Positions 2,599 through 10,461 of a stretch of 13,966 nucleotides of DNA are shown piece after piece. The notes beneath the pieces are model-generated. The model worked only from the letters and a program-made list of their open reading frames with translations. It was not told the origin of the DNA and ran no database searches. Numbering within the stretch: position 1 is the stretch's first letter; each line of letters begins with the position of its first letter. The stretch is from UHGV virus genome UHGV-0038964; one strand, written 5' to 3'. This DNA comes from a virus. A program made the position numbers and the translations under genes.

Positions 2599-2979
2599 CT
2601 ACTCCGCAGAACCATACAATCTACGTAACGTGGCGGCGACAGAAGATACAGATATCTCGCCAGTCGCAGCGCCTACAGTAAGGTCTGCCAGTTCAGGTGA
2701 ATCAAATACCTGCACCCCGTTACGGCGTAGAAATAGCAGCGCACTGTTTAGCGCGGTACGCTTATTGGCATCATTGAATATATGCCCTCTCGCTGTAGCC
2801 ACCAGGTAGGTGGCGGAGACTTCGAAAAGGTCGGTGATCTCTTCGTAGGCAACTCTGGCCTGAACTCTCCCGATAATGGCCTCTGCCCTACCCGGATCTG
2901 ACATTCCCGGCAGGCCGCCGTAGCGGCTTATATTCGCATCATGAAGCGCAATAAGTTCTTCCGGTGATATATGCCTCAT
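2599..2979 (-). CDS. doc: Doc toxin (Fic-fold kinase, death-on-curing), 126 aa
   Basis: Protein [22 protein letters not shown]... with the Fic/Doc motif [11 protein letters not shown]; matches P1 Doc as I recall it. Its ATG overlaps the phd stop (TAATG). Confidence 0.9.
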
Positions 2980-3200
2980 TATCGGTTAACCAGTTCCTTG
3001 TTGGTGGAGTCCAGGGTGTCAAACAGGGATGCAAATTCAGCATCCAGCGCCGCTTTTTTGTAGGCTTCGAAAGTAGCCTTGCTGACAATTACTGCTGGCT
3101 CACGGCCTCTGCGGGTGATTTCAACCTCTTCCCCGGCTTCAACATTGTTGAGCACTTCAGAAAGGTTGCCGCGCGCGGTACGGAAGTTAATGGATTGCAT
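2979..3200 (-). CDS. phd: Phd antitoxin (Phd/YefM family), 73 aa
   Basis: [41 protein letters not shown]... matches P1 Phd as I recall it; true ATG at 3198-3200 with GAGGTG upstream. The track start at 3206 is a GTG two codons earlier. Confidence 0.9.
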
Positions 3201-3206
3201 AAACAC

Positions 3207-3233
3207 CTCGTGTACTCGTTATGTGTACACAAT
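3207..3233. promoter_or_regulatory. Putative Phd/Doc autoregulatory operator (GTGTAC core at 3210-3215 and palindrome TGTGTACACA at 3222-3231)
   Basis: Two GTGTAC-containing sites immediately upstream of the phd start, one a perfect 10-bp palindrome. Phd is known to autoregulate at palindromic sites in its promoter; the exact site sequence is not recalled. Confidence 0.35.
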
Positions 3234-3272
3234 TATAAACTTCACAGGCATAAAGCACCAGCACTTTGCAGC

Positions 3273-3662
3273 TTAAATCACCGGACAGTCATCAAATTCC
3301 CCACTTCGGGCATCATTGATGACATGAGTGATCACACCAAAAACAGCATTACTACCCGTGTAACCATCGTCATCTACTGGTAACGCCTCTTTCTTCCCGG
3401 TGCTTAAATCCTCCAGGTGCTGGCGCGGATACTTTCGGTATCTCTTTATGCGATATTCACCCTCCATAGCGCAGACAAGCAGCGAACCATCAACCGGAGT
3501 AAGCGAGGAATCAACCACCAGCAAAGCACCCTGCAATATTCCCTCACGGTGATGGCTGTCTGCCGCCCGCATGAAGTATGTCGCTGATGGATGCCTGATT
3601 AGTTGCTGATCAAGAGAAATTCTGCTTTCAACATAATCCGCCGCAGGAGAAGGGAAGCCCAT
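3273..3662 (-). CDS. humD: HumD, UmuD'-like polymerase V accessory subunit homologue (LexA/S24 peptidase fold), 129 aa
   Basis: ATG at 3660-3662 with GAGGTGA upstream; UmuD'-like sequence; gene order humD-phd-doc as in P1; LexA box immediately upstream. Confidence 0.8.
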   Translation of the reverse strand: MGFPSPAADYVESRISLDQQLIRHPSATYFMRAADSHHREGILQGALLVVDSSLTPVDGSLLVCAMEGEYRIKRYRKYPRQHLEDLSTGKKEALPVDDDGYTGSNAVFGVITHVINDARSGEFDDCPVI

Positions 3663-3681
3663 AGCGTTTTCACCTCAACAA

Positions 3682-3701
3682 TACTGTTTATTTATACAGT
3701 A
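3682..3701. promoter_or_regulatory. LexA (SOS) box TACTGTTTATTTATACAGTA
   Basis: CTGT at 3684-3687 and ACAG at 3696-3699 with an 8-nt AT-rich spacer; a perfect CTGT-N8-ACAG palindrome about 20 nt upstream of the humD ATG, in the divergent region shared with the + strand gene at 3837. Confidence 0.75.
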
Positions 3702-3836
3702 TACATTAAAGAGACACCTTTGGTGCAAACGCGTTATGTACATCAACCACCGCAGATGATTTTGTGCGCTTTGCTACTATTCATCACCAACGGATCAGCG
3801 TAACCTCGTTGCCAATCAGTTAATAAGGAATTAGCT

Positions 3837-4412
3837 ATGCCTAATCGCATTCCTCTCGATCCTGTATTGCCCAAAAATTTTGACTGCACTCCTAACGAGA
3901 AACGCTCTAAAGCTCAGCTGGACGCCTGGTGGGATCATCCGTATGGAGTTACACAATCTGACGGGAAAATTGTTGTTTTTTGTCTAAACGGTGGCGCGTG
4001 GGACCGTCCATCCATGCTTTGTTTGGCAGATAACTATGATGACGCCTGTGAACTTGCAGAAAGAAAGCAGGCAAGCTGGGTAAAAACACGGTCTAAACCG
4101 TCATTCATGTTTTCAATAGAACCGCCATTTATCCTAGCAAGGATGCCGCAGCGACCAGACCAGGAACAGCAAGAGATTGTTGCCGAATTTGATTCAAGGG
4201 AAGAAATGAACCTCTTCACGATGAAACAGGAACAAGAAGAGAATCTTGGAGTTTCACCATTTTTGGATCACAAGAGTATGAACCTCGACCTGCTTATCTG
4301 GTACAGCAATGAGCTTGAGTTATCGCTGTCCCGGCTTGAAAAAGAAAAAGCAGCTATCCAGGCACAACGTGAAGCTGTGTTGGCGCGGATTAAAGAAGTA
4401 CAGAACGGATGA
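3837..4412 (+). CDS. Hypothetical protein (191 aa) with a coiled-coil C-terminus; divergent from humD
   Basis: ATG at 3837 with AAGGAA 7 nt upstream; no overlapping competitor ORF; the C-terminal 60 aa are heptad-like (LELSLSRLEKEKAAIQAQREAVLARIKE). Function unknown. Confidence 0.55.
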   Translation: MPNRIPLDPVLPKNFDCTPNEKRSKAQLDAWWDHPYGVTQSDGKIVVFCLNGGAWDRPSMLCLADNYDDACELAERKQASWVKTRSKPSFMFSIEPPFILARMPQRPDQEQQEIVAEFDSREEMNLFTMKQEQEENLGVSPFLDHKSMNLDLLIWYSNELELSLSRLEKEKAAIQAQREAVLARIKEVQNG

Positions 4413-5795: not shown

Positions 5796-6545
5796 TTAAT
5801 CAGCCTCCAGTGGCAATAACGCCTTAGCCATTTCATGAACCAACATGGCATCAATGACGCCTAGCGTATGGCCCGGCTTAATCTTTAATGCGGCCTCAAG
5901 ATAGCCTCTTTCCAGAGTGGTTTTTACGCTTTTCCTGGGCGCCTGTTGGGAACTATCCGGAAGATCCGGATGGTTCCCAGCCTCATAAGCTATCCGCAAC
6001 CAGTGCATGAATGTTTCCGCAGACACACAACCGCAGTCCACATCGATTTTCCCGCGTTGCTGTTCCAGCCATTGCCCAAAATCCAACCTGTAAGCCTTAC
6101 TTTCAAGTTCATCGCCATTGAACTCGACTTTCTGCGACGCTATGAGAGCTGATTCGTATTGTTCGCGAGTGACAACTGACTGGTATTCATCGCTATCAAG
6201 ATCACCAATTGGAAGCTCAATCTCACAACAAAAATTGCGCCCAAAGAACGTGTCTTTTTTGTGGTCTGAGCCAAAAGCAAAAGTCGCGCATGGCGCCATT
6301 AAATTGGCACTGAGCAGGCGACAATCGATCATACCATCAGGCCACCCGCCGCACTTAGGCAGCTCCTTCACTAACAAGTCGATAAGCTTCATTTTTTTAT
6401 CATCTTTGCTAGTTGCTAACGCCATTTTTGCAAGTCCAAATACTTCATCTGCCGTATATCCAGCACCGTGACCATACATTTCGATACGGGAAATAATCTC
6501 TGATATACGCTCTTTAGTGATTCTGGTCATTTCTTTTTGCGCCAT
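5796..6545 (-). CDS. Hypothetical protein (249 aa), last gene of the operator-gated operon
   Basis: ATG at 6543-6545; long ORF with no recognisable motif; followed by the terminator at 5732-5761. Confidence 0.5.
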   Translation of the reverse strand: MAQKEMTRITKERISEIISRIEMYGHGAGYTADEVFGLAKMALATSKDDKKMKLIDLLVKELPKCGGWPDGMIDCRLLSANLMAPCATFAFGSDHKKDTFFGRNFCCEIELPIGDLDSDEYQSVVTREQYESALIASQKVEFNGDELESKAYRLDFGQWLEQQRGKIDVDCGCVSAETFMHWLRIAYEAGNHPDLPDSSQQAPRKSVKTTLERGYLEAALKIKPGHTLGVIDAMLVHEMAKALLPLEAD

Positions 6546-8706: not shown

Positions 8707-8723
8707 ATATTTATTAGAGCAAT
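8707..8723 (-). promoter_or_regulatory. C1 operator-like 17-mer (minus-strand reading ATTGCTCTAATAAATAT) with promoter-like elements just downstream
   Basis: 16/17 match to the C1 consensus ATTGCTCTAATAAATTT. On the - strand it is followed by TTGATT, a 17-nt spacer and GAAAAT, a plausible -35/-10 pair for the operon at 5796-8624. Confidence 0.55.
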
Positions 8724-9166
8724 TATTGTTGATGGAGAAGCGCGTTTTCATACTCCCTGACCATTAACGTAAGCACGCCGTGCCTCCTGAAAACACGCGC
8801 CACTTCAATCTTATCTTCCAGCGCGAACGCGATTTTACTTAGACCAATTTTCTTAAGGAGATCAATCTTTGCTGGGCCGTCATTTCTGTCATCGGTGGCA
8901 GGACGCATAGATAGCAAAGGCTCAGCCCCGTTTGTTACGTACTTCCGCAGCCAGGCTCGTGTTTTATCCCTTGCGATCTCACAGCGCCCGGTTACAAACC
9001 AGACCGTGTAAACGTTAAATAACTGGCGCACAATATCAATAACTGGAGTTATGGGAGTATCAGTGTCACAGGCGAGATTAAACTCGTTCCAGTCCTTTGT
9101 TAATGCACCTTTACCTGGTGGCGGAAGCAAATGCAGTCTGTCTTCAGTTGCCTCTGATATTGTTCC
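8723..9166 (-). pseudogene. 3' portion of a HAD-superfamily (DxDGT) phosphatase gene split by the IS3-family element
   Basis: The reading frame is open from the insertion junction at 9166 to the stop at 8723. Joined to the opposite flank it reads ...PYIVIVDIDGTISEATEDR...VWFVTGR...DKTR...ATDDRNDG, the HAD motif order, resembling the phosphatase domain of polynucleotide kinase-phosphatase. Confidence 0.6.
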
Positions 9167-9184
9167 TGAATCGCCACAGATAAT

Positions 9185-10090
9185 CTAGACACTTCCGAGC
9201 CGCTGATAATATTGTTTTTCGTATTCAGTTGGTGGCATATGATCACTCGAACCATGCCGACGCTTACTGTTATAAAACATTTCGATGTAATCAAAAATAT
9301 CACCGCGAGCTTCTTCTCGCGTTCCGTAGATCTTTTTCTTTATCCGTTCACGTTTCAGTAACTGGAAAAAACTTTCTGCGACTGCGTTGTCATGACAGTT
9401 ACCGCGACGGCTCATACTGCCCTCCAGCCCGTGTGATTTCAGGAACGACTGCCACTCATAGCTTGTGTACTGACTGCCTTGATCAGAATGAACCAGCACC
9501 TGCTTTTGAGGATTACGTCGCCACACGGCCATCAGAAGTGCATTCAGGACAATATCCTTTGTCATCCGGGGCTGCATTGACCAGCCAATAACTTTGCGCG
9601 AGAACAGGTCAACAACCACAGCCAGATACAGCCAGCCTTCGTGAGTCCGGATGTAGGTGATGTCCGTTACCCAACGCTCATCCGGTGCTTCCGGGTTGAA
9701 CTGCCGCTGGAGCCTGTTGGGCGTCACGATGCTGGTTTCACCCTTACGTGCCCGTGGGCTACGGTACCCGACCTGAGCCCTTATCCCGGCACGCTTCATC
9801 AGTCGCCAGACACGGTTAACTCCGCACTGTTGTCCGGTATCCCGCAGGTCGAGGTGGATCTTGCGATAACCATAAACGCAACCCGACTCCAGCCAGAACT
9901 GCTTTATCAGCCCCGTCAGTCTCAGGTCAGCATGATGCCGCCGTGAATCCGGCTGCTGAAGCTAGGCGTAAAAACCACTCGGATGCACATCCAGCACCCG
10001 ACAAAGCAGTCGGACAGGCCAGCAATGGGTGTTGTCACGGATAAAGGCGTACCTCAGTCGGACAGCTTTGCGAAGTACGCCGCGGCTTTT
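9185..10090 (-). pseudogene. IS3-family transposase orfB (DDE catalytic domain), interrupted by an in-frame TAG
   Basis: The orfB frame is open from the slippery site (about 10090) and reads ...LLCRVLDVHPSGFYA, then TAG at 9962-9964, then LQQPDSRRHHADLRLTGLIKQFWLESGCVYGYRKIHLDLRD... continuing into the track ORF 9185-9799. Confidence 0.7.
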
Positions 10091-10332
10091 TTTAATATGT
10101 CCCGTTCGTCGGTAACCCGCTTCAGCTCTTTCTGGAGGCGTCGGATCTCAGCCTGAGCGTCTGACTGGACTTTATTGGTTGAGGAATCCGGGCCATATGC
10201 CTTTATCCAGGCATAAAGACTGTGGGTGGTGATACCGAGACGTGTTGCCACGCTGGAAACAGAATGGCCGCGATCAACAACCTGTTTTACCGCTTCAATT
10301 TTAAACTCTTCGGGATAACGCTTACCGCTCAT
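10054..10332 (-). CDS. IS3-family transposase orfA (helix-turn-helix / leucine-zipper part)
   Basis: ATG at 10330-10332 with GAGAGG upstream (the track start at 10338 is a GTG); ends ...DILKKAAAYFAKLSD. The ATATTAAAAAAAGCC slippery heptanucleotide at 10085-10099 marks the -1 frameshift into orfB. Confidence 0.8.
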   Translation of the reverse strand: MSGKRYPEEFKIEAVKQVVDRGHSVSSVATRLGITTHSLYAWIKAYGPDSSTNKVQSDAQAEIRRLQKELKRVTDERDILKKAAAYFAKLSD

Positions 10333-10392
10333 GGGCACCTCTCTTTAAGTCATCTTAAATGACTCTGAGGTGTCTGTTAAACCCGTGGCGAT

Positions 10393-10461
10393 TCATCCAT
10401 CAATATCAACTATGACGATATACGGACGTTCCTGGTGTGCGTGTTTATTGAAAATACTCAA
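10393..10461 (-). pseudogene. 5' portion of the same HAD phosphatase gene (LSIFNKHAHQERPYIVIVDIDG), cut off by the IS
   Basis: In frame with the 3' portion once the IS and one TCC copy are removed. The only candidate start is the TTG at 10459-10461, with GGAGGG 4 nt upstream; the IS terminal TGA now supplies the stop. Confidence 0.45.

Follow-up and report, generated by a model that had tools for sequence, protein, structure and literature searches.

An amber codon at a former Dcm site interrupts the transposase of an ISEhe3 copy inserted in pap of a P1/P7-like phage-plasmid

IS911, the experimental model of the IS3 family of insertion sequences, has an architecture that it holds in common with the element described here: an N-terminal HTH, a leucine zipper, a programmed -1 frameshift, a C-terminal DDE domain and a 3-bp target-site duplication. 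Its OrfAB protein has 382 aa, equal to that of our element, although IS911 is a different element and the likeness is one of architecture and length. Closer still is ISEhe3, a known element reported from many Enterobacterales (PMC4924310). Copies of ISEhe3 in Shigella phage SfIV and in many Enterobacterales chromosomes and plasmids share with ours the 1229-bp length, the inverted repeats, orfA, the A7G slippery site and orfB. Relevant to how such a copy may decay, the Dcm enzyme methylates the second C of CCWGG, and deamination of the resulting 5-methylcytosine gives C-to-T changes in E. coli that are normally countered by very-short-patch repair (PMC3527292); Dcm is usual in E. coli (PMC3527292, PMC6591954).

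We analyzed a stretch of 13,966 nucleotides (hereafter the window) from the virus genome UHGV-0038964. An original prediction, made from the letters alone, held that the window carries a recently inserted IS3-family element with an intact target-site duplication, and that its transposase gene orfB contains an in-frame amber codon where a Trp is expected, attributable to a single G-to-A change and leaving the copy transposase-defective. We followed up each part of this prediction by retranslation, by alignment to other copies, by domain and column analysis, and by searches of genome, plasmid and metagenome collections.

The element is a complete ISEhe3 of the IS3 family, lying on the minus strand of the window (Table 1). 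Over its full length the IS body is 99.8-99.9% identical to E. coli chromosomal copies annotated 'IS3 family transposase, programmed frameshift', and the name ISEhe3 rests on 99.0% DNA identity to the SfIV copy (KC814930), whose orfA and orfB were so named by its depositors. The terminal inverted repeats are imperfect (33 nt, 73% complementary) and have TG...CA ends, reading TGAATCGCC...GGCGATTCA. Domain searches of the orfB-frame translation placed HTH_21 at residues 53-105 and rve at residues 132-230 (2.9e-32), with rve_2 and rve_3 also matching. The copy thus displays the orfA/orfB organization with a -1 frameshift, the HTH and DDE (rve) domains, the TG...CA ends and the 3-bp target duplication of the IS3 family, while lacking the full-length translatable OrfAB of an autonomous element. 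It is a member of IS3/ISEhe3 by descent, but a defective one.

Table 1. Coordinates of features in the 13,966-nt window (a dot in the strand column marks features listed with no strand)
Feature	Position	Strand	Basis
ISEhe3, complete, 1229 bp	9167..10395	-	DNA identity 99.0-99.9% to annotated copies
IRL, outer end TGAATCGCCAC...	10363..10395	-	inverted-repeat pair; identical to other copies
IRR, outer end ...GTGGCGATTCA	9167..9199	-	inverted-repeat pair; alignment with other copies
orfA, 92 codons plus TGA, intact; HTH_Tnp_1 regulator/DNA-binding protein	10054..10332	-	translation; Pfam HTH_Tnp_1 E=1.9e-19
Slippery run AAAAAAAG (A7G), intact; programmed -1 frameshift fusing orfA to orfB	10086..10093	-	identical copies annotated 'programmed frameshift'
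orfB frame, -1 relative to orfA, from frameshift site to natural TAG stop at 9187-9185; broken at OrfAB codon 124	9185..10093	-	translations
Premature amber TAG replacing Trp124 (TGG) of OrfAB; changed base 9963	9962..9964	-	translation, alignments
Longest ORF past the amber, 204 aa from first ATG (9799); rve only, no DNA-binding N-terminus	9185..9799	-	ORF list
Former Dcm site, CCTGG (plus strand CCAGG) to CCTAG/CTAGG; changed base pairs with inner, methylated C	9962..9966	.	consensus comparison
Second Dcm site, CCTGG on Ala-Trp42 of orfA, intact	10207..10211	.	CCWGG scan
pap 5' fragment, TTG start at 10461, 21 codons plus the Gly22 codon forming the target-site duplication	10396..10461	-	mapped onto P7 pap CDS and pYLPD4b 'phosphatase domain-containing protein'
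pap 3' fragment	8723..9166	-	mapping onto P7 / pYLPD4b
Target-site duplication TCC, left copy	9164..9166	.	single TCC at empty sites
Target-site duplication TCC, right copy	10396..10398	.	single TCC at empty sites
doc (Fic/DOC)	2599..2979
phd	2979..3206
humD (Peptidase_S24)	3273..3662

Retranslation of the minus strand from 10084 to 9185 reproduced the predicted amber codon exactly, in both coordinates and reading: ...LLCRVLDVHPSGFYA-stop-LQQPDSRRHHADLRL..., after which the frame stays open to its natural stop at 9185. The premature stop is residue 41 of the orfB-frame translation, and both HTH_21 and rve lie downstream of it. The plus strand has a T at position 9963 and the consensus a C, which on the coding strand is the single G-to-A change that had been proposed. 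Aligned at the DNA level with the window copy, three other ISEhe3 copies of 99-99.9% identity and a relative of about 90% all read TGG at this codon. Against the two closest E. coli copies (H6 and H1), the TAG base is the sole difference across 1229 bp. The window copy and intact ISEhe3 elsewhere are separated by one base, TGG to TAG at OrfAB codon 124, and once Trp124 is restored the window OrfAB is 100% identical to the intact ISEhe3 protein (P0001, 382 aa), which has Trp at residue 124.

The expectation of a Trp at this position also holds across the family. A plain homologue search returned only relatives at least 93% identical and was unfit for judging the conservation of a column, so we counted the column in the top 150 representatives of 50%-identity clusters, which are 35-92% identical to the query and of which 129 cover the position. 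The residue is W in 102 of these 129, Y in 12 and F in 5, making it aromatic in 119 (92%). It closes the motif C-x-x-L-x-V-S-x-S-G-[YF]-Y-x-W, located between the leucine-zipper region and HTH_21.

The DNA around the element is a P1/P7-like phage-plasmid. It aligns with the phage P7 region running c1-doc-phd-humD...pap-shtB(pmgS)-ppp, and the non-IS part of the window differs from the E. coli PD4 plasmid pYLPD4b by one mismatch in 12,737 nt (99.99% identical). ISEhe3 interrupts pap after 21 codons, within the HAD motif, between DIDG and the following T. The TCC that flanks the element on both sides is present as a single copy at the empty sites of P7 (L005 9265-9267) and pYLPD4b, which bears out the duplication. 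Flanks 100% identical to those of the window, with the IS absent, occur in at least nine plasmids. Because the duplication and inverted repeats are intact, plasmids with identical flanks retain the empty site, and the IS body is one base off consensus, the insertion looks recent from these sequence comparisons, as originally proposed. We found this insertion nowhere else: a junction-spanning query gave no match covering at least 80% of it in plasmids or phages, a 36-mer across the pap-IS junction had no match in genome_contigs, and an IS insertion into pap of a P1-like plasmid was not found in any searched record. The product of the pap 3' fragment is not on record. The insertion can serve as a useful strain marker for the P1-like phage-plasmid lineage concerned, and the annotation should treat pap as a disrupted gene and the IS copy as a pseudogene, or non-autonomous ISEhe3.

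Three further features of the backbone were observed in passing. The sole difference from pYLPD4b, at window position 6056 (G here, A there), is not at a Dcm motif; within a 249-aa hypothetical protein (5796-6545, minus strand) it specifies Arg164 (CGC) here versus Cys (TGC) in pYLPD4b. Beside the c1 repressor gene (492-1343), positions 1488-2387 form an open 299-aa ORF with a DUF968 domain, whereas the pYLPD4b annotation splits the identical sequence into two pseudogene fragments, a KilAC antirepressor and a DUF968 protein; the discrepancy probably comes from annotation or marks the relic of a fusion. The P1/P7 plasmid-addiction and SOS module at 2599-3662, comprising doc, phd and humD, is present and intact.

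The changed base lies in a Dcm site. Consensus ISEhe3 contains CCWGG only twice, at IS positions 185 and 430, and in the window copy the plus strand of the second of the two reads CTAGG in place of CCAGG, a C-to-T change at the inner C that is the signature of Dcm deamination. With four 5-methylcytosine positions per 1229 nt, the chance that a random substitution falls on one of them as C-to-T is 4/1229 x 1/3, or about 0.001, as calculated post hoc. The nearest plasmid relatives of the window come from E. coli. We consider an origin of the mutation by 5-methylcytosine deamination, judged from this sequence context, to be likely rather than demonstrated. Both Dcm sites fall on GCC-TGG (Ala-Trp) codons in 'YAW' motifs, covering Trp42 of OrfA and Trp124 of OrfAB, and deamination of the non-coding strand at either would yield an amber codon. 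Across the element, 155 single-base substitutions at 130 positions could create a nonsense codon. The corresponding amber at the orfA site (Trp42) had no exact match in 1545 plasmid places, and the Dcm sites are accordingly not conspicuous hotspots in the available data.

We then asked how widely the TAG allele occurs. With an 81-bp query centred on the TAG, neither the 96 places in 5,426 complete E. coli genomes nor the 105 in PLSDB plasmids gave an exact match, all full-length matches in both sets being 80/81; such a query detects TAG only in an otherwise identical 81 bp and scores a copy with a second nearby difference as wild type, a blind spot that weighs more for the heterogeneous 90% relative than for ISEhe3 itself. 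Searches in the background of that approximately 90% relative covered 983 places in E. coli and 1,526 in plasmids, again with no exact TAG match. Taken together, these E. coli genome and plasmid searches covered about 2,700 other places, none of which has the exact TAG allele. A 36-mer carrying TAG had no match in GTDB species representatives, a 29-mer carrying TAG had none in IMG/VR, and ten further ISEhe3 copies from Logan, ENA and NCBI assemblies, read directly, all have TGG. Functional copies carrying TAG at codon 124 would have spoken against the original prediction, and no other ISEhe3 copy examined has it. As a marker of amber copies, the 204-aa ORF past the stop was rejected, since wild-type copies also have it called as a gene; the 10 loci it brought up are the ten TGG copies above.

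The 29-mer carrying TAG did match one metagenome contig, L007 (ERZ1034962 NODE-470), within a relative of ISEhe3 at positions 2702-3930. This relative is 89% identical to the window copy (131 differences) and likewise has TGG changed to TAG at Trp124. It resembles the window copy in the codon, the TGG-to-TAG change, the Dcm context and an otherwise open orfA and orfB, and differs from it in IS lineage, in genomic context and in having no visible target-site duplication. Its nearest intact relative, on the Enterobacter roggenkampii plasmid pWL374-3, differs from it at 3 nt, one of which is the amber base; because only three bases separate the two copies, the L007 amber is an independent event. 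The Trp124 amber has thus arisen at least twice, in the window copy and on L007, the second case having been found by searching for exactly the TAG allele with no control allele in the same collection. This recurrence fits a deamination origin. Since the flanks of the L007 copy (...CAGCAGTT on one side, TACTCAAA... on the other) have no 3-bp target duplication, a deletion, a recombination or an assembly join may lie next to this copy. Another of the differences from the nearest intact copy is an Arg-to-Trp change (IS position 642, C to T).

Other ISEhe3 copies vary elsewhere in the element. At L003:295-1540, in E. coli CFSAN061762, the slippery run ATATTAAAAAAAGCCGCGG is replaced by ATATTGAATCTA-CAGCGG through five substitutions and a 1-nt deletion, a change that by its sequence should abolish programmed frameshifting. 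The deletion puts orfA in the +1 frame, not in the orfB frame, although the RefSeq label still reads 'programmed frameshift'. This leaves an orfA of 98 codons, in agreement with the 297-nt orfA annotated in SfIV, and the SfIV copy (L006, 99.0% identical) and the CFSAN061762 copy lie in the same tail-fibre-assembly context. Judged from its sequence, the CFSAN061762 copy looks like another, different kind of dead copy. Two Logan copies (L011:2417-3633 and L012:1579-2795) have a rewritten, indel-rich stretch from approximately IS position 314, just past the frameshift site, the listed differences reaching at least IS position 357; the first gene call in these copies is 132 aa, versus the usual 92-aa OrfA.

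The position of the changed base exactly within a CCWGG motif is also what an artefact could produce, with a true G (TGG) obscured by a nanopore consensus error at a Dcm motif or by the mixing of reads from different IS copies. Short-read polishing is difficult in repeats such as IS copies and might leave an error of this kind uncorrected. Under default ONT models, Dcm motifs accounted for about 70% of consensus errors, and Nanopolish removed only about 70-80% of those (Wick et al. 2019, PMC6591954). In the window, however, the remaining 36 CCWGG sites, among them the other one of the IS, are all intact, and the one base that separates the backbone from pYLPD4b is non-Dcm. On these grounds we rejected systematic nanopore miscalling of Dcm motifs in the assembly, the backbone being 99.99% identical to its relative. 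The same change on L007 also argues against an artefact, as the name of that contig (NODE-...-cov-...) looks SPAdes-style and the contig, if so, would be free of nanopore error. We therefore regard an artefact at this single base as quite unlikely. The Dcm context is nonetheless a warning as well as a plausible origin of the mutation, and the base needs read-level confirmation.

If the base is real, it could be older than the insertion, the copy having carried TAG at its donor site and been mobilized into pap in trans by transposase from an intact ISEhe3. Its ends, inverted repeats and target-site duplication are perfect and make it a competent substrate, and helper copies are plausible because some E. 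coli strains hold up to about 10 copies of ISEhe3 per genome. Yet transposases of the IS3 family, IS911 OrfAB among them, prefer to act in cis, the databases searched contain no second TAG copy of ISEhe3 itself, and insertion first with decay later is the simpler order; we consider prior decay unlikely. It is very improbable that the copy is still functional through readthrough, either by a supE-type tRNA inserting Gln or at a leaky UAG-C, with the stop acting as a strong down-regulator. The amber codon is followed by C (TAG C), a context in which E. coli terminates comparatively weakly, and supE44 is common in laboratory K-12 strains. Against this, amber suppressors are rare in natural isolates, a search of the window for a suppressor tRNA found no tRNA gene, and supE would put Gln where 92% of relatives have an aromatic residue. 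The absence of TAG from the other ISEhe3 copies examined makes it unlikely to be a designed feature.

The reading we favor, and hold to be probable, is that ISEhe3 recently inserted in pap and that a G:C-to-A:T change turned Trp124 from TGG to TAG, leaving the copy non-autonomous, with deamination of 5-methylcytosine as the most likely cause. In such a history the mutation would have followed the insertion, and the methylated inner C opposite the coding strand would have been deaminated to convert CCAGG to CTAGG. Because orfA, the slippery site and both ends are untouched, OrfA should still be made. Translation that undergoes the programmed -1 frameshift would then stop at codon 124, before the HTH_21 and DDE domains, so that the copy would make OrfA and at most a 123-residue OrfAB stub. 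With the amber upstream of both HTH_21 and rve, no transposase is expected without suppression, which bears out the view of the copy as transposase-defective. The intact ends would leave it movable, but only if an intact copy in the same cell supplies transposase. Overall, the original observation is confirmed and its interpretation is supported.

A wider proposal is that cytosine methylation by the host makes the two Dcm sites of ISEhe3 and its relatives site-specific mutational kill points, with the Trp124 amber a recurrent, perhaps the commonest, null allele in Dcm-positive Enterobacterales; this we find doubtful. Were recurrence at codon 124 general, it would illustrate on a small scale how DNA methylation by the host can influence the way mobile elements decay.

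A nonsense-mutated IS copy in a known type of phage-plasmid is an ordinary, already known kind of event, and its mildly interesting points are limited to the Dcm-site context and the single independent recurrence. For the truncated product, the nearest described counterpart is IS911 OrfAB[1-149], which has no catalytic domain, binds the IS ends as a dimer and cannot catalyze transposition (PMC2909936). By analogy the 123-aa stub may still bind the IS ends or interfere, although it is shorter than OrfAB[1-149] and is the product of a natural mutation, so that any binding or inhibitory activity is presumed from the IS911 fragment. For the mutation itself, the counterpart is the set of lacI amber hotspots at E. 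coli Dcm sites, which share with the window copy the CCWGG context, the inner C, the C-to-T change and the amber product; here, in contrast, the gene affected is a transposase gene on a phage-plasmid, in which the methylation and the mutational origin are deduced from the altered site.
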